From the IMG/VR virus record IMGVR_UViG_2671180456_000012: a stretch of DNA of 36,283 nucleotides; one strand, 5' to 3'. The stretch comes from a virus (lineage: Duplodnaviria; Heunggongvirae; Uroviricota; Caudoviricetes). The position numbers and the translations under genes were made by a program. Of this stretch, positions 4,469 to 30,505 are shown piece after piece. How positions within the stretch are numbered: the stretch's first letter is position 1; every line of letters begins with the position of its first letter. Below the pieces are notes generated by a model. That model did no database searches and was not told the origin of the DNA. It saw nothing but the letters and a program-made list of their open reading frames with translations.

Positions 4469-4514
4469 CCTTTTGTATGTTATTTGGCTATTATAATAAG
4501 TAAGTGATTACTTA
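4469..4514. promoter_or_regulatory. Divergent promoter region with overlapping -10 elements and a TAAGTA-N6-TACTTA palindrome
   Basis: ATTATAAT at 4490-4497 reads as TATAAT on both strands. The palindrome taagta(4497-4502)/tactta(4509-4514) is at the predicted rightward start site. Only 64 bp separate the helicase and ParB starts. Confidence 0.35.
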
Positions 4515-5213
4515 GTGGATTGTAGCAATAAAATGGATGTAAAAATCACGATTTTGCAGGTTGATGTTGCCAACCTTCGCCCGAATACCTGGAACACCAA
4601 TTCGGTTGGTGCGCAGAATTTTGAAAAACTGAAAGGTTCTATCGAAAAATTGGGCTTTTTTAAGCCAATTTTGGCTCGTGAACTTGAAGATGGATTTTTT
4701 GAAATCCTCGGCGGCGAACATCGCTGGCGTGCTGCTATTGAGCAAGGAATTTCAACGGTTCCGGTGCTTTCTGTGGGCAAAATTAGCGATGTCGTAGCTA
4801 AACAGATGTCACTGGTGGACAACGAGCGATACGGTGAAGACGACCAAATCGCATTGCAACGCTTCATTGAAGAAATTCAGTCAGAACTTGACTATCAACT
4901 GTCTGAAATCGCCCCGTATGACGACGAAATCTCGATGGTTTTAGCAAAAGAGGCGGCAATCGACCTTGAAGCACTGGAGGCGTTGTCTCGTGGTAGTGAT
5001 GAGCCTGTCGATACCGACAAACGAGAGAAAACCGAACGTGTGGGTGCGGAACATCAGACCATGCGCTTCAAAGTAACTTTCGATGCGTCAGATCGTGTTG
5101 CAGAAACCATAAAAAACATCATCAAAGAGCAGGCTATTAACACCGGTAATGAAATGGAGAACGCTGGTGAGGCTCTGGTGTGGCTGGTCGACTACTACAA
5201 GGAGCGTATGTAA
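4515..5213 (+). CDS. ParB-like nuclease-domain protein 1
   Basis: N-terminal ParB/Srx fold motif (FEILGGEHRWRAAIEQGISTVPV) and an acidic C-terminal half. The track start is GTG at 4515; the ATG at 4533 is an alternative. Confidence 0.8.
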   Translation: MDCSNKMDVKITILQVDVANLRPNTWNTNSVGAQNFEKLKGSIEKLGFFKPILARELEDGFFEILGGEHRWRAAIEQGISTVPVLSVGKISDVVAKQMSLVDNERYGEDDQIALQRFIEEIQSELDYQLSEIAPYDDEISMVLAKEAAIDLEALEALSRGSDEPVDTDKREKTERVGAEHQTMRFKVTFDASDRVAETIKNIIKEQAINTGNEMENAGEALVWLVDYYKERM

Positions 5214-5881
5214 TGACCAAAAAGTTTGAAATCGTATATCGCGACCCGGCAGATCTTATTCCCTATGAGATGAATGCCAAAAAGCATGATGAACAGCAGA
5301 TCCGAGATCTAGCCGCAGCCATTAAAAAGCGCGGATTTGACCAGCCAATTACGGTCGATAAGAACGACGTAATTATTACTGGCCACGGCCGCCGTGAGGC
5401 TGCAATTTTTGCTGGACTTGAGCGCGTACCGGTTATTGTTCGCGATGATCTCAGTGATGACGAGGTTCGTGCGAAGCGCCTTGAAGATAACCGACTTGCC
5501 AGCATTGATTACGATGCAATTAAGCTACAGAAAGAGCTTGAGTCGCTTGTTCTGGACGATATCGAGGTTTTCGGCTTTGAAGAGCGTGAGTTGAATGTTC
5601 TCGTTGGCAGTATGACAGAAGAAATGGACACCGACTCGCTAGTTATCGATCTTGGCGAAGAAACTAAACGACAGAAGGATGAACACACCGAGATCAGTCG
5701 TGAAGTTGCAGCGGAAGAAGTACGTGTTGTCGACGTATTGGGCTTTAAAACGCTCCCTGCTGGCTCTGCCATTGTTGTTGGTGATTTGCTTGCCCACATG
5801 GAAGAAATGACGGGAGAAAGCGGGGTAGACGCATTTGTGGCATATGCGGAGAAGATCTCTTCCGGGGAGATGGCTGCATGA
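5213..5881 (+). CDS. ParB-like nuclease-domain protein 2
   Basis: Motif IITGHGRREAAIFAGLERVPVIV. The ATG at 5213 overlaps the upstream stop (taATGa) with AAGGAG 8 nt upstream; the track ORF 5180..5881 is the same frame with an earlier start. Confidence 0.8.
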   Translation: MTKKFEIVYRDPADLIPYEMNAKKHDEQQIRDLAAAIKKRGFDQPITVDKNDVIITGHGRREAAIFAGLERVPVIVRDDLSDDEVRAKRLEDNRLASIDYDAIKLQKELESLVLDDIEVFGFEERELNVLVGSMTEEMDTDSLVIDLGEETKRQKDEHTEISREVAAEEVRVVDVLGFKTLPAGSAIVVGDLLAHMEEMTGESGVDAFVAYAEKISSGEMAA

Positions 5882-28600: not shown

Positions 28601-30412
28601 GCTGCAAGAGATGAAGCGGCGGCTCTTATTGCTAAGGAAAGCGAGGCTCGTGTTGAAGGCGATGCTGCAAACGCTAAACAACTGGAAGTGTTGCAGTCAA
28701 CGGTAGAGGAAAGCTCCGCTGCCGTTGAAGAAATGAAAAAGACGGTTGCAGAGGTCGATCGTGCCAGTGCAGAACTGACTACGAACATTGAGGCGTTAGC
28801 CAAAACAAATATTGACCTGGCTCTTCGTCAAGATGAAGACCAGCACAAGCAGATGGTCAATAACGCGAAGATCGCAACAACACAGAAAACCTTTGCTGAT
28901 GATATGTCTGCAATGGCCACGAAGGTTGAGGAAATTCGCGTAGAAATTGGCGAAGACATTAAGGCCAGTATTCTGGAAGAGTCCACCGCTCGTGCCGATG
29001 GCGATGAAGCGTTAGCAAAGCGTGTCACTCAGCTGCAATCTAAGTTTGAAGGAGATATCAGCGCGGCGATTAGTACAGAGCAGGAGGCTCGTACATCTGC
29101 CGATGAAGCTCTGACGACACAGATCACTCAGCTTGAGTCGAAAGTAAGCAACGATATCGTCGCAGCTATTAAGGAAGAGCAAGAAGCCCGAGCAACGGAA
29201 GATTCGGCTCTGGCAAGCCAGATCACCCAACTTCAGGCAAAGGTTGATGATGATATTTCTGCTGCAATACGTAGTGAGCAGGAGGCCCGAGCAAGCGGGG
29301 ACTCTGCGTTAGCCAAACAAATAAACCAGCTTCAGTCAAAGGTTGACGGTGATATATCCGCTGCCATCACTCAGGAGCAGGAGGCCAGAGCAAGTGCTGA
29401 CCAGGCGCTCTCACGAGAAATTAACAGCCTGCGAGCACAAACCGGAACTGATATTGCCGCAGCGGTTGCTGTAGAGACAAAAGCAAGGACTGATGCCGAT
29501 AGTGCATTGTCTACCCAGATTACGTCTCTTACAGCAAAAGCTAATGATCTCGAGGCGTCTCTTGCCAGAGAAACAACGGCTCGTGCAGATGGTGATACCG
29601 CTTTAACAAAAGAGGTTTCAAGTTTAAAAGCACAGACAGCGAAAGATATTAGTGCGGCCGTTGCAGTTGAAACGCAGGCTCGAACTGATGCTGACTCGGC
29701 GTTGTCGTCTCAGATCACCAAGCTGACCTCTCAATACAAAGAGGATATTAAAGCGGCTGTAGCAACCGAAACGAAAACGCGTACAGAGCAAGATGCTGCA
29801 TTGGCGACTCAAATCACAAACTTAGAGTCTCAAACGGCAGCCAACATTTCCGCGGCGGTAACAACTGAAACGACAGCGAGAACGCAGGCAGATAATGCTC
29901 TGAGTGGGCGAATCGATACTCTGAAAGCAGAGGTGGATGGAAATACCGCGACAATTCAACAGCAGGCAACAGCTATTGCTGATACCAACAAAAAAGTATC
30001 AACCGCGTGGACGTTGAAAATGGAGACTTCAACGAGCGGAGGGCAGAAGTATGTTGCCGGTATTGCGCTTGGTATTGACACCACTGGGCTATCTCAGTTT
30101 TTGGTTCAGGCGGACAGGTTTGGTTTGGTCAACTCTGTTAACGGGAAGATCACAACGCCATTTGTTATCGAAAACAGTATCGCCTATATGAATGGAGCGT
30201 ATATCAAGGATGGCACAATCACCAATGCAAAAGTAGGCGATCTGCAATCTACCAATTTTGTTAGCGGTAGATCTGGATGGCGGTTCGGCAAAAATGGAAC
30301 GCTTGAGATCAACGGTAATAGCGGCGGCAATGGGCGATTGGTTATAAATGGTCAGCGGATTGACGTTTATGACGATAACAACGTCCTACGAGTAAGAATT
30401 GGCCGTCTGTGA
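25685..30412 (+). CDS. J: Central tail fibre / host specificity protein (lambda gpJ-like) with inserted coiled-coil repeat region
   Basis: N-terminal and central regions share conserved blocks with lambda J (..GFGG.E.R....Q.T.., ..AFGCTSRGQAHR.GLWL.., ..KYVAGI.L....G.LSQFLV.A.R..). ATG at 25685 with AAGGA SD; the track ORF starts at TTG 25679. Confidence 0.9.
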   Translation: MEQFKKKKLPLFIAGAGGKKSSKSSSRTPVEADDTVNSRAMAAILDLLGEGVIGGLVNGARSIFIDDLPIVNEDGSSNFSGITWDFRDGSQDQTPMSGFDFVETPKSVNIQLKKTHYVTVSIDNDEADRVRVIMKFPSLRSIDKKTGDTNGTTVEYKFQIANGDSTFVDVVAEGEKSVGIKLTAKKTGVYYRSYELKLPKPGRAYKVRVVRITDDNSSQYLYNDTWVDSIGEIVDTPMNYPNSVLVGLKVNSEQFGSTMPSRSYLVRGLKIRVPSNYNEASNTYDGVWDGTFKLLSSSNPAWILFDLLTNARYGLGQYVSESMIDLGQLYQIGRYCDEEVDDGFGGKEKRFAINTQITSRQDAYRLIQDIAGAFRGMVFWAGGMVNIMQDSPSDPVMMFTNSNVKDGLFTYKGSARKDRPSVALVTYNNKEDGYKQNIEYVEDQDAMRRYGERKTEVVAFGCTSRGQAHRVGLWLLYTARMESDVITFTAGLDASFLMPGETVLIQNKYRAGKRNSGRIVAFTKNSVTLDAPVSLAKGGCFIRILNQEGKIVERDVLETGENITKVTFSKALSSAETPVLNGVWTITEPDLEPMRVRIVNIAQGETPGSFDITAVENNPSKYEAIDNGATLIPQNTTVLDPTYSKPSNLQITEGTYLSSPGNLSVKLTATWEGKSPEYWISWRRSDENNVSNWQSARVTEEQYEIVNVAENGRYDFQLYAVSFNGKKTEIISAVYQVLGTMTPPDSPTSLTAVGDYRNVILNWVNPDSVDLDHINVYASQTNNLDTAKLIAESASTTFTHAGLGDSETWYYWVRASNKRGMLSPPNSNLGTEATTRDVLSFLTGKITSSELGQALLEDINSKASQEAVDELNEHINQSVESLEGAVNDVKEDIAELDKQFSDNLADFEIKFNERSDALENAQTELKGEVSATIDKVNEAFEKIDATDAAIVEIENTVSEHDKALANTVEAIKAARDEAAALIAKESEARVEGDAANAKQLEVLQSTVEESSAAVEEMKKTVAEVDRASAELTTNIEALAKTNIDLALRQDEDQHKQMVNNAKIATTQKTFADDMSAMATKVEEIRVEIGEDIKASILEESTARADGDEALAKRVTQLQSKFEGDISAAISTEQEARTSADEALTTQITQLESKVSNDIVAAIKEEQEARATEDSALASQITQLQAKVDDDISAAIRSEQEARASGDSALAKQINQLQSKVDGDISAAITQEQEARASADQALSREINSLRAQTGTDIAAAVAVETKARTDADSALSTQITSLTAKANDLEASLARETTARADGDTALTKEVSSLKAQTAKDISAAVAVETQARTDADSALSSQITKLTSQYKEDIKAAVATETKTRTEQDAALATQITNLESQTAANISAAVTTETTARTQADNALSGRIDTLKAEVDGNTATIQQQATAIADTNKKVSTAWTLKMETSTSGGQKYVAGIALGIDTTGLSQFLVQADRFGLVNSVNGKITTPFVIENSIAYMNGAYIKDGTITNAKVGDLQSTNFVSGRSGWRFGKNGTLEINGNSGGNGRLVINGQRIDVYDDNNVLRVRIGRL
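28970..29930 (+). repeat. Tandem ~111-bp (37-aa) coding repeats, about 9-10 copies, inside the J-like gene
   Basis: Recurring units of the type ..EQEARASGDSALAKQINQLQSKVDGDISAAI.. / ..VETQARTDADSALSSQITKLTS..; heptad-like spacing suggests coiled coil. Confidence 0.75.
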
Positions 30413-30505
30413 TGGTGGAAAAAAATTTTTATATCGGTAAAAATAGGTAAGTATTTACTTAATGGCGGGCAAGGATAACCCGCCAAATCAAGGAGCATAT
30501 TCAAC

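Follow-up and report, generated by a model that had tools for sequence, protein, structure and literature searches.

Dispersed copies of a 20-bp dyad in an SSU5-like phage-plasmid as probable immunity operators of a small XRE-type repressor

The DNA analyzed here (the window) is a stretch of 36,283 nucleotides from an Escherichia SSU5-like phage-plasmid that matches phage Cyrano at 98.8%; elements of this type have genomes of ~108 kb. The window carries a UvsW-like helicase gene, an operon of two ParB-family proteins, terL, and portal, scaffold, major capsid and tail genes. The initial annotation had described TAAGTA-containing palindromes recurring at junctions between these genes. They are real and enriched, but they are not short palindromes of variable spacing; the repeated unit is one 20-bp dyad in a fixed frame, ATARGTA-N6-TACYTAT, of which TAAGTA is the edge. 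The dyad, called operator A here, has the form ATARGTAAGTACTTACYTAT within the close clade. Its two 7-bp arms have centers ~12-13 bp apart, and its flanks are weakly symmetric (ATG|...|CAT). We found no prior description of this dyad; operator A appears to be an undescribed member of a kind already known, dispersed repressor operators. Sites in the window, scored with a position weight matrix (PWM) trained on SSU5 only, are as follows.

4496..4515, unstranded: operator A, ATAAGTAAGTGATTACTTAG, 19.8 bits, arms 7/6
10017..10036, unstranded: operator A at the terL-portal junction, ATAGGTAAGTAATTATCTAA, 23.5 bits
11524..11543, unstranded: operator A within the portal gene 3' end, ATAAGTCAGTACTTACTTAT, 27.5 bits, best in the window
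13440..13459, unstranded: operator A, GTAGATAAGTAATTATCTAT, 21.7 bits
17015..17034, unstranded: operator A, ATTGGTAAGTATATACTTAC, 21.6 bits, kept in three genera
23520..23539, unstranded: operator A, ATAAGTAAGTACTAATTTAC, 22.2 bits, kept in three genera
30443..30462, unstranded: operator A, ATAGGTAAGTATTTACTTAA, 26.4 bits
11621..11630, unstranded: doubtful left half-site, ATAAGTAACA, arms 7/2, <8 bits with the full PWM

Six of the eight palindromes originally proposed (4497, 10021, 13443, 17020, 23519 and 30448) belong to this set. The palindrome at 7981 is instead the loop-proximal portion of a distinct ~55-nt hairpin (7961-8017), and the one at 11620 is a half-site that overlaps the portal stop codon TGA and lacks the right arm, although the string TGATAAGTAA found there is still conserved in three genera. 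The strong site at 11524-11543, inside the portal gene, had been left out. The 14-mer TAAGTAATTATCTA said to be shared by two copies was found at 10022 and 13445, and the stop codons reported in all three frames are present as a mere by-product of the sequence.

The first site occupies an 82-bp gap from which the helicase gene (minus strand) and the ParB-family operon (plus strand) diverge. It is the best-conserved site position, kept in SSU5, Klebsiella and lineages with 69-81% portal identity, and a TATAAT hexamer (4492-4497) ends at its operator position 2 in the same register as at the repressor promoter described below. At site 10017 the terL stop codon TAG (10018-10020) forms operator positions 2-4 and the portal ATG is just 10 nt away, which is too little for a promoter; lineages with as little as 69% portal identity still retain the orthologue of this site, which in L025 and Klebsiella reads as a perfect palindrome. 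A near-consensus promoter, TTGAAA (11518-11523)-17-TATGAT (11541-11546), has site 11524 as its spacer; it is the top σ70 match (10/12) and lies 99 nt ahead of the scaffold-protein gene. Identical copies of this site occur in SSU5 (3544) and Cyrano (3527), and the same architecture is seen at SSU5 55695. Site 13440 is 8 nt past the stop of the major capsid gene and 6 nt ahead of an intrinsic terminator hairpin (13466-13485, then TTTTT), and its Klebsiella orthologue is the perfect consensus ATAGGTAAGTACTTACCTAT. The remaining sites are flanked by tail genes: 17015 by the tail-completion and Ig-like tail protein genes, with an overlapping promoter-like match (TTGAAT-18-TATACT, 17002-17031); 23520 by the tail M-like and L-like genes, with a promoter-like match (TGGATA-17-TATCAT, 23517-23545) whose TATCAT is followed by a covarying hairpin (23549-23571); and 30443 by the TipJ/J-like gene and the next tail gene, with the hairpin GGCGGGCAAGGATAACCCGCC abutting its 3' side and orthologues at SSU5 21937 and Cyrano 22448.

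AT-rich DNA full of stop codons could yield TAAGTA-like strings by chance, and three copies (12524, 16433 and 35867) were rejected as sites and truly are chance occurrences; the copy at 12524 reads TCAAGTAA in relatives. However, TAAGTA occurs 20 times on the two strands of the window against 9.6 ± 3.2 expected, a count reached by none of 100 shuffles, and nearly all plus-strand copies lie within gaps or at gene junctions. The SSU5-trained PWM finds seven full copies (19.8-27.5 bits) against 0.25 expected. When only the arms were required, six intergenic sites were found against 0.20 expected, with a maximum of two across 300 dinucleotide-preserving shuffles of intergenic DNA alone. An unbiased k-mer analysis of the independent SSU5 genome ranks TAAGTA as the most over-represented intergenic hexamer (23 vs 4.4 expected, z = 8.9), and that genome holds 25 operator A sites, 20 of them intergenic. 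Cyrano as a whole has 24-27 copies, 23-25 of which are intergenic; by PWM there are 27 matches against 1.1 expected, with 25 intergenic although only ~12% of the genome is. The shuffles, together with conservation of the sites across genera, already refute an origin in base composition, and its probability is negligible.

Alignment of related phages showed that operator A keeps its sequence at orthologous junctions across Escherichia, Salmonella, Klebsiella and Yersinia pMT1, and that the flanks at these junctions diverge (Escherichia, Salmonella, Klebsiella). The initial annotation would have abandoned the motif had it been no commoner between genes than base composition predicts, or missing from orthologous junctions; it is enriched and is conserved at such junctions in three genera, so the motif stands. 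The same annotation had raised the possibility that the palindromes are RNA hairpins, and a hairpin or AU-rich cleavage site for processing or differential stability of polycistronic mRNA would fit coding-strand sites that sit between cistrons, often upstream of stable hairpins. Most of the 20-mers could form a 6-8-bp hairpin. However, arm mismatches among 72 unique sites comprise 29 G·T and 36 A·C, with no bias of G·U over A·C. The arms keep their sequence and show no covariation, whereas covariation is seen in the adjoining GC-rich hairpins. Arms persist in lineages down to 69% portal identity, where the inner 6 bp are free and non-complementary. The folds predicted for the sites have little stability (-1.5 to -5.6 kcal/mol) and do not track motif quality; the best-scoring site folds worst and no better than shuffles. 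Some sites also lie in promoter gaps between divergent genes or on the start site of a promoter, and no Rfam family was found for the element. An RNA-level role is thus highly improbable. The missing G·U bias and a center whose six bases change freely in distant lineages point to a dimeric DNA-binding protein as the reader, which would recognize the two 7-bp arms in double-stranded DNA in a sequence-specific manner.

Overlap with σ70-like promoters is greater at the sites than at control intergenic positions (mean best score 6.2 vs 3.9, p = 7e-7; 0 of 200 local shuffles reach the score of the sites), as judged with approximate hexamer matrices. The overlap has no fixed register to the σ70-type hexamers and occurs at two or more registers. 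Two sites are the spacers of near-consensus promoters (TTGAAA-17-TATGAT/TATCAT) that need no activator. A recognizable -35 is absent from most sites, and the motif carries TA-rich hexamers of its own. The suggestion that the palindromes are promoter elements of a phage-specific transcription system found no support, given a symmetric element with no fixed register to these hexamers; no phage RNA polymerase was found among the annotations of the SSU5 or Cyrano records.

Another interpretation is that operator A is the site of a dimeric phage activator that would recruit or remodel host RNA polymerase at -35-less promoters of a lytic (middle or late) class, as Lpa does in P1 (PMC10695390). The lack of a good -35 at most sites fits this, as does the way that sites often fill the slot between a terminator hairpin and the next gene, and about half of the sites have a TAnnnT hexamer at positions 18-23. 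Several window sites have covarying hairpins 1-9 nt to their 3' side that could be protective transcript 5' ends, and a conserved MarR-like winged-helix gene lies directly upstream of terS, a typical position for a late activator. However, the TAT-CAT hexamers are mirrored on both sides and are hence part of the palindrome, at least two registers to the -10 are found, and some sites have no promoter, such as 10017. The two sites within near-consensus promoters also speak against an activator, as does a site at +1 of the repressor promoter, a position where a bound protein represses. The targets (replication, nucleotide-metabolism and structural genes) do not form one temporal class. Activation is therefore an unlikely role for operator A.

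Every site in Cyrano precedes a lytic gene, including those for portal, tail, fibre, holin, SSB, SbcD, NrdA, ThyX and Dam. When the sites were compared with the table of lysogeny-expressed genes (PMC9928086), no strong site was found before any gene on that list; a weak one of 14.2 bits does precede the lysogeny-expressed CYRAN_81, at a distance of 161 nt. A regulator expressed in the plasmid (lysogenic) state is encoded beside the integrase, outside the window. This CYRAN_45-family protein is a candidate repressor, a small (128 aa) XRE/Cro-C1-type helix-turn-helix (HTH) protein with no self-cleaving S24 domain and with a sub-threshold Pfam HTH_19 match (19.7 bits vs a cut-off of 30.2). Its HTH segment IGYKNxNNLSLIKSGKIPLP is nearly invariant, as are the operator arms. 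An A-type palindrome lies at about +1 of the conserved repressor promoter, TTTACA-16-TAATAT, in all 39 distinct upstream regions drawn from 80 loci (repressor identity 56-100%), and also in Klebsiella pJN2-26 and Y. pestis pMT1. These copies are weaker (9-19 bits) than those at lytic genes (20-27 bits). The repressor is present in 865 plasmids of the SSU5 supergroup; in the SSU5 phage record it is missing and the sites are still present.

The initial annotation's proposal of operators for a phage regulator agrees with the dyad symmetry, the sequence conservation, the lytic-only deployment and the copy at the repressor start site. We consider it reasonably probable that the TAAGTA motifs are dispersed immunity operators, with the CYRAN_45-family repressor as the likely reader that silences lytic genes in the plasmid state. 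We infer this pairing, and repression by binding, from the position of the palindrome at the repressor's own promoter. Bound repressor would occlude the host σ70 promoters of lytic units by covering the start site or by occupying the -35/-10 spacer, and where a junction leaves no room for a promoter it might serve as an extra binding site or a roadblock. It would also limit its own synthesis through the weaker copy on its own start site. Simple promoter occlusion does not explain the layout within the late structural operon, where several window sites sit directly upstream of hairpins and site 13440 precedes a terminator.

Another reader, for instance a Cro-like lytic regulator, could act via the same site to shut the repressor promoter, and three other conserved DNA-binding candidates persist wherever the sites do (the two ParB-family proteins, the MarR-like winged-helix protein and a 92-aa protein). 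If the XRE repressor read the palindrome in the plasmid state and a Cro-like regulator, perhaps the 88-aa winged-helix protein or CYRAN_46, read it in the lytic phase, the palindrome would work as a bistable switch element across the whole genome. Operators are shared in this way in the classical switches of lambda, 434 and P22, the palindrome is found at the repressor's own promoter and at lytic genes alike, and the winged-helix protein has a confident MarR-like fold and belongs to an operon with an A site at its head. However, the second reader is hypothetical, and the divergent 45/46 gap has one site and one half-site in place of a cluster of adjacent operators of graded affinity. Two readers are decidedly unlikely. 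It is also very unlikely that the sites load the ParB-family proteins (4533-5213 and 5213-5881) in the style of KorB of RK2 or Noc/VirB, with a CTP-dependent clamp at dispersed palindromes that silences, anti-silences or organizes the genome. KorB and Noc are known to use dispersed palindromes, the best-conserved site heads the operon of these proteins, and both proteins are present in every diverged lineage that keeps the sites; the first aligns to Spo0J across residues 7-154, which take in both its CTP-binding and its HTH domain (E = 2.7e-9), and the second matches KorB weakly. However, ParB, KorB and Noc sites (parS, OB and NBS) are contiguous 13-16-bp palindromes with a conserved center, whereas the central 6 bp are free here. 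The ParB genes are absent from the lysogeny-expressed list and so cannot encode a plasmid-state silencer, and a ParB role leaves the +1 copy at the XRE repressor promoter unaccounted for.

Among known systems, the proposed CYRAN_45-family circuit resembles that of P1, whose 22 C1 operators are dispersed over 93 kb (PMC8546580), compared with about 24-27 copies over 108 kb here. Both are plasmid prophages whose lytic functions fall into many transcription units, with a copy of a single operator standing guard over each, and control of the repressor's own promoter, found in P1, is proposed here too. However, the P1 operator is asymmetric, 17 bp long (ATTGCTCTAATAAATTT) and read by a large protein, whereas operator A is a dyad of 20 bp whose central bases are free and whose candidate reader is a 128-aa XRE-type HTH protein. 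P1 late operons have Lpa sites rather than C1 operators, whereas operator A also occurs within the structural and lysis module. Lpa sites are a conserved 9-bp inverted repeat at 11 late promoters lacking a -35 (PMC10695390), and operator A likewise is a conserved inverted repeat that recurs at many -35-lacking promoter regions of a phage-plasmid. It differs from these late-gene activator sites in its variable -10 register, its early/middle and repressor gene targets, and two sites in activator-free promoters. The KorB operator of RK2 is also a palindrome dispersed over the promoter regions of a large plasmid, and ParB-family genes adjoin one copy here; the contiguous conserved-center palindromes there differ from the free center here, and the ParB genes here are silent in the plasmid state. 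The LexA (SOS) box has the identical frame (taCTGTA-N6-TACAGta vs atARGTA-N6-TACYTat), sharing GTA-N6-TAC, 20 bp and an AT-rich center, but its diagnostic CTG/CAG triplets are missing from all window sites; the element does have genuine SOS boxes at other places (Cyrano 89277 and 41046, SSU5 88011), with none at A sites. The 434 operators are dyad-symmetric with conserved outer arms and a variable center. Operator A shares this design with lambdoid, 434 and P22 systems, together with a (candidate) HTH repressor, overlap with σ70 promoter elements and an operator on the repressor's own promoter. It differs in having single sites genome-wide rather than a tripartite OR/OL cluster at one divergent switch. 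Because the candidate repressor lacks an S24 self-cleavage domain, SOS induction would be indirect, via the few LexA-controlled genes of the element.

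The hexamer TAAGTA occurs 20 times in the window against 9.6 +/- 3.2 expected, and nearly every plus-strand copy lies in a gap between genes or at a stop codon, in agreement with the initial annotation, which described recurrent TAAGTA palindromes at gene junctions. In the intergenic DNA of the complete genome of the related phage SSU5, which served as an independent test set, TAAGTA was the top over-represented hexamer (23 copies versus 4.4 expected), GTAAGT came next, and TACTTA, the reverse complement of TAAGTA, was in sixth place. TAAGTA genuinely recurs, far above chance. 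When the unit was defined by seed-free EM on the SSU5 gaps and then by alignment including the flanks, TAAGTA was found to be part of a 20-bp imperfect palindrome, ATARGTAAGTACTTACYTAT, referred to here as the A site; the first EM run merged two different motifs, which were separated by hand and with dedicated criteria. Several copies form perfect palindromes, among them SSU5 27474 (GTAGGTAAGCGCTTACCTAC) and two in Klebsiella. In a set of 72 unique sites both arms are conserved, and the flanks are weakly symmetric too (aaaATG-site-CATttt). In lineages at 69-81% portal identity both 7-bp arms are kept, and the six central bases are unconserved and non-complementary (AGTGGG, TTCAGA, GTCGCC and others); lineages L078, L079, L066 and L083 show this. 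Because the arms persist while the centre drifts, the evolutionary core is ATARGTA-N6-TACYTAT. The variable spacings originally described all reduce to this one 20-bp frame, since TAAG recurs with a 4-nt period within the half-site. The stop codons in three frames that had been pointed out are incidental, as the consensus leaves one frame open and sites lie up to 36 nt from a stop codon.

A position weight matrix (PWM) trained on SSU5 only detected seven A sites in the window, scoring 19.8-27.5 bits, where 0.25 were expected from local shuffles. An arms-only criterion gave 6 intergenic sites versus 0.20 expected.

A sites in the window (PWM)
4496-4515, A site
10017-10036, A site overlapping the terL stop codon
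11524-11543, A site within the portal gene, the best-scoring in the window
13440-13459, A site
17015-17034, A site
23520-23539, A site
30443-30462, A site

Six of the eight palindromes listed initially are members of this motif; the one at 11620 is a half-site, the one at 7981 is not an A site but the tip of a different hairpin (element C, described below), and the best-scoring site had been missed. At 10017 the interval from the end of the site to the portal ATG is 10 nt, too short to accommodate a promoter.

The window shares 98.6-99.2% identity with Escherichia phage CMS-2020a and with E. coli plasmids of ~106-111 kb, 98.8% with phage Cyrano, 81% with Salmonella phage SSU5 and ~79% with Klebsiella phage-plasmids, and is therefore a piece of an SSU5-type phage-plasmid. 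It starts with a minus-strand block (an FljA-family gene, small genes and a UvsW-like helicase), after which come the ParB-family operon and the terminase, portal, capsid and tail genes, up to the tail fibre genes. Beyond ~25.4 kb colinearity with the closest plasmid is lost; the host-range module has thus been exchanged. Several side observations were made on this stretch. An FljA-family protein is also encoded in SSU5 and the Klebsiella relatives, and the gene suggests that the phage-plasmid interferes with host flagellin expression. A tail-assembly ORF that is one gene in the closest plasmid is split here by the NN at 25496 (25070-25507 and 25515-25667).

Other features of the window
1590-2192, minus strand, FljA-family protein ("repressor of phase-1 flagellin"; PF03614, E = 2.5e-84)
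35248-35446, plus strand, full-length IS009 Rfam match (RF02111, 218 bits), within ORF 34905-35486 downstream of the tail fibre gene
301, 1133-1143, 25496-25497, 31473-31493 and 32532-32550, runs of N

RNA hairpins for processing or stability were one of the roles first offered for the palindromes. In an alignment of orthologous junctions from Escherichia, Salmonella and Klebsiella, the A sites were conserved as the initial annotation's reading required: the 20-mer is kept as sequence and the neighbouring bases diverge. A few bases 3' of the sites are GC-rich hairpins in which the sequence changes and the pairing is kept, with compensatory pairs such as GGCGCT/AGCGCC versus CAACGT/ACGTTG, and GCGCA/TGCGT versus GCACC/GGTGC versus GTGTC/GACAC.

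GC-rich hairpins with compensatory changes in structural-gene gaps
13466-13485, the only one with a clear T-run
14433-14452, without an A site
~17041-17056
23549-23571
~30465-30485

Since pairing is kept through compensatory changes among three genera, these hairpins are real RNA (or terminator) structures; four of them begin 1-9 nt after an A site. The arms of the A sites themselves do not covary. Their mismatches on the coding strand, counted over the 72 unique sites, are 29 G·T versus 36 A·C, where an RNA helix would favour G·U. Folded as RNA, the 20-mers reach -1.5 to -5.6 kcal/mol, the best site being the worst folder, and Rfam gave no match at the A-site positions in the window. These data speak against an RNA-hairpin role for the palindrome. 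The sequence-level conservation, the lack of a G·U bias and the weak folds therefore suggest that a symmetric and presumably dimeric protein recognises the A site in double-stranded DNA.

The relation of the A sites to promoters was analyzed with -35/-10 scoring matrices that are approximate, being drawn from general knowledge of E. coli hexamer frequencies. With these matrices the sigma-70-like match score was 6.2 at A sites vs 3.9 at other intergenic positions (P = 7e-7), and 0 of 200 local shuffles reached 6.2. Promoter-like matches as such were not enriched in 4001-24000 (12 vs 20 +/- 5), and no fixed -35 relative to the A sites was found. Promoter overlap is clear at 11524, 17015, 23520 and 4496, and no credible promoter was found at 10017 or 30443. 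Two registers occur. In one, the -10 ends at site position 2, which puts the start point inside the site (as at window 4496, where TATAAT occupies 4492-4497); in the second, the site forms the -35/-10 spacer, as in TTGAAA-17-TATGAT at window 11524, the region's best promoter match, and TTGAAA-17-TATCAT at SSU5 55695. Near-consensus promoters need no activator and would therefore need a repressor in the plasmid state, and the variable register fits repression rather than activation. That TAAGTA is itself a sigma-70 promoter element was not borne out, the flanking TAT-CAT being the sole hexamer of the motif that matches TAnnnT. A promoter for a T7-type single-subunit RNA polymerase, prompted by a "...CACTTACTATA" look-alike at one SSU5 site, was dropped in view of the symmetry of the element and the lack of an annotated polymerase gene in the SSU5 and Cyrano records.

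In Cyrano (108 kb, ~12% intergenic) the arms criterion gave 24 A sites, 23 of them intergenic, and the PWM gave 27 versus 1.1 expected, with 25 of the 27 intergenic; SSU5 has 25, of which 20 are intergenic. Downstream of the sites lie genes for lytic functions (portal, tail, fibre, holin, gp32-like SSB, SbcD, NrdA, ThyX, Dam, the ParB-family operon and others). Gaps in the non-structural region are usually arranged as stop codon, terminator-like hairpin, site and next gene, so that the site occupies the promoter slot. When the site map was compared with the published list of genes expressed in the Cyrano lysogen (PMC9928086), no strong A site was found upstream of any of them; one weak site (14.2 bits) lies 161 nt before the lysogeny-expressed CYRAN_81. 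Strong, dispersed sites are also present in Y. pestis pMT1, where 9 of 11 A-site matches in 40 kb are intergenic. pMT1 is regarded as a degenerate phage-plasmid; it also retains the promoter-operator module of the repressor gene described next.

Strong A-type sites in pMT1 (L225; 20-26 bits)
4080, 4407, 6448, 9971, 17017, 27872 and 33426

The candidate reader is CYRAN_45, a 128-aa protein with an XRE/Cro-C1-type HTH and without a cleavage domain (its Pfam match is sub-threshold), encoded outside the window:

Cyrano 42188-42574, minus strand, XRE repressor (corresponding SSU5 region, 41776-42525)

CYRAN_45 is among the genes expressed in lysogeny (PMC9928086), so the Cyrano expression list and site map together place the repressor among expressed genes and its proposed targets among silent ones. 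An A-type palindrome lies 28-31 nt upstream of CYRAN_45. TTTACA-16-TAATAT precedes the repressor gene in each of the 39 distinct upstream regions compared, which come from 80 loci with repressor identities of 56-100%, and also in Klebsiella pJN2-26 and Y. pestis pMT1. The 20-mer ATC(G/A)GTAAG(C/T)ACTTACCA.A begins inside the repressor -10 and is centred near +1, which places an A-type operator copy on the repressor's own promoter. These copies score 9-19 bits vs 20-27 bits for lytic-gene sites; a lower score is what one would anticipate for an autoregulatory operator, the last that ought to be occupied. The repressor's HTH segment is almost invariant, like the operator arms. Plasmid records of the SSU5 supergroup that carry the repressor, always with the integrase adjacent, number 865, and Salmonella plasmids and Y. 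pestis pMT1 are among them. No repressor gene was found in the SSU5 phage record, which retains all the A sites, and SSU5 may be a naturally repressor-less, derepressed (virulent) derivative.

The A sites are strongly non-random, and the explanation that fits best is that together they make up the dispersed operators of the phage-plasmid's own repressor. The operator role, one of the three suggested initially, is thus the best reading, given the dyad symmetry, the deployment at lytic genes and the copy at the repressor promoter. We infer that CYRAN_45 reads the sites and that repression is the outcome. In this model the A sites would be the immunity operators of the phage-plasmid: a repressor dimer would bind them and block host RNA polymerase at many lytic transcription units, and the weaker copy would limit the repressor's own promoter. 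Ciprofloxacin induces Cyrano 39-fold (PMC9928086). This induction must be indirect because the repressor has no S24 domain, and SOS induction would presumably act via one or two LexA-controlled genes. Canonical LexA boxes, absent from the window and not located at A sites, precede an S24-peptidase (UmuD/LexA-like) gene, the integrase and the small gene SSU5_103, and the SOS signal probably enters through them.

Canonical LexA boxes (e.g. TACTGTATGTGTATACAGTA)
Cyrano 89277 and 41046
SSU5 88011

Other proteins were considered as readers. The phage-plasmid encodes two ParB-family proteins, the first of which (4533-5213) aligns with Spo0J through the HTH (residues 7-154; Pfam ParB_N), and ParB-family genes are absent from the lysogeny-expressed genes. 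All candidate readers are retained in every diverged locus that keeps sites, so their presence or absence is uninformative, and the ParB-family proteins and a lysogeny-expressed 92-aa protein (2610-2888) stay among the candidates. For the 92-aa protein, AF2 gave no usable model (pLDDT 52), and an RHH fold was rejected, as neither a PDB profile search nor Pfam gave an RHH match; the protein stays unassigned. The 88-aa winged-helix protein (7669-7935) was rejected as a LexA-like reader: its LexA_DNA_bind match is sub-threshold (E = 0.07), and its predicted model resembles MarR/PadR/HxlR winged helices generally rather than LexA specifically.

A further and rather unlikely possibility is that the sites do more than occlude promoters: a bound A site and its hairpin could form an insulator unit blocking read-through from plasmid-maintenance into lytic genes, or the palindrome could act as a genome-wide two-reader switch. 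The genome of ~100 kb is transcribed almost wholly one way, the sites at 13440, 17015, 23520 and 30443 lie directly 5' of covarying hairpins or terminators, and the terL-portal junction is too tight for a promoter. In the two-reader variant the XRE repressor could alternate at the palindrome with a lytic-phase protein, either the MarR-like winged-helix protein or the ParB-family CTP clamp, and SSU5, which keeps the sites without the repressor, would again be a naturally derepressed variant.

Two further elements recur in these genomes and are distinct from the A site.

Elements B and C
Window 8052-8067 and 8077-8093, element B, a second dispersed palindrome (GAAAACAAnTTGTTTA), in the gap before terS
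Window 7961-8017, element C, an AT-rich, GC-clamped hairpin of ~55 nt (CCTGCTTCyGTATATA...TATATACrGAAGCAGG)
Cyrano ~31160, ~78085 and spanning the ends of the record, element C
SSU5 33459, 78305 and spanning the ends of the record, element C

Element B has about 14-20 intergenic copies per genome (SSU5, Cyrano) in a fixed context, with a -10-like GATAAT/TATTAT ~11-12 nt upstream and its end at the Shine-Dalgarno, 27-36 nt before the ATG. It precedes terS, ParA (operon), DnaB-like helicase, NrdB, Ant and many small genes, some in groups with lysogeny-expressed genes (28-30, 101-102, 108-109). Some hairpins are followed by a T-tract that consists of a reverse copy. Element B probably serves as operator or leader of a separate sigma-70 promoter class. 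Element C, with three copies per genome (-19 to -33 kcal/mol, some followed by T-runs), is probably a bidirectional terminator bounding major modules, and the linear ends of the SSU5 and Cyrano records, as deposited, lie within one of its copies.

In Escherichia, Klebsiella, Salmonella, Enterobacter and Yersinia, phage-plasmids of the SSU5 type rank with the commonest large plasmids that are non-conjugative; the pHCM2-like elements of S. Typhi, pMT1 of Y. pestis and carriers of resistance genes all belong to them. If the operator reading is true, one 20-bp sequence defines a complete immunity regulon and names its repressor. It would account for the usefulness of the SSU5 isolate as a cocktail phage, with operators present and the repressor gene absent, and predicts that elements which share both the repressor HTH and the operator arms are cross-immune. 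Virulent derivatives could be made by mutating the operators or the repressor, repressor expression could protect strains, and the operator could report induction. The site map also marks transcription-unit boundaries in a genome annotated mostly as "hypothetical". The principle is unsurprising, but this is a first concrete, testable regulatory map for a large and clinically relevant element group. No description of the motif or regulon was found, and the literature search gave no paper in which the motif string appears in connection with phages; a 2024 review of phage-plasmid regulation gives no circuit for the SSU5 group (PMC11652158).

The LexA box frame CTGTA-N6-TACAG equals that of the A site, but host LexA was rejected as reader because the CTG/CAG triplets (CTGT-N8-ACAG) occur in no window site and true boxes lie elsewhere. 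ParB-type sites normally have a conserved centre, and parS/OB/NBS sites are contiguous 13-16-bp palindromes, whereas the A-site centre is unconserved. In P1 the activator Lpa acts at late promoters through an inverted repeat of 9 bp (PMC10695390). Lpa sites stand at a fixed distance upstream of a -10, in promoters without a -35, and serve late genes (morphogenesis, lysis) only; A sites show at least two registers (offset -4, +17) as well as promoter-less sites, and also precede SSB, SbcD, NrdA, ThyX, Dam, the ParB operon and the repressor gene. The Lpa model therefore fails to account for the register, the target classes or the site at +1 of the repressor promoter. A dyad-symmetric site of about 14-20 bp conserved in both half-sites is what XRE operators look like, and the chemistry is shared with lambdoid XRE repressor-operator pairs. 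However, the dispersed layout is not: instead of clustered operators at a divergent repressor/cro switch, the 251-bp CYRAN_45/CYRAN_46 gap holds one site and one half-site, and elsewhere sites are single and dispersed. P1 has 22 dispersed C1 operators (PMC8546580). The P1 operator is asymmetric, 17 bp long (ATTGCTCTAATAAATTT) and read by C1, whereas the A site is symmetric, unrelated in sequence and has a 128-aa HTH_19-like protein as its candidate reader. Nevertheless, with this number of dispersed operators on a plasmid-prophage, compared with 24-27 in Cyrano and 25 in SSU5, P1 is the functionally closest system.
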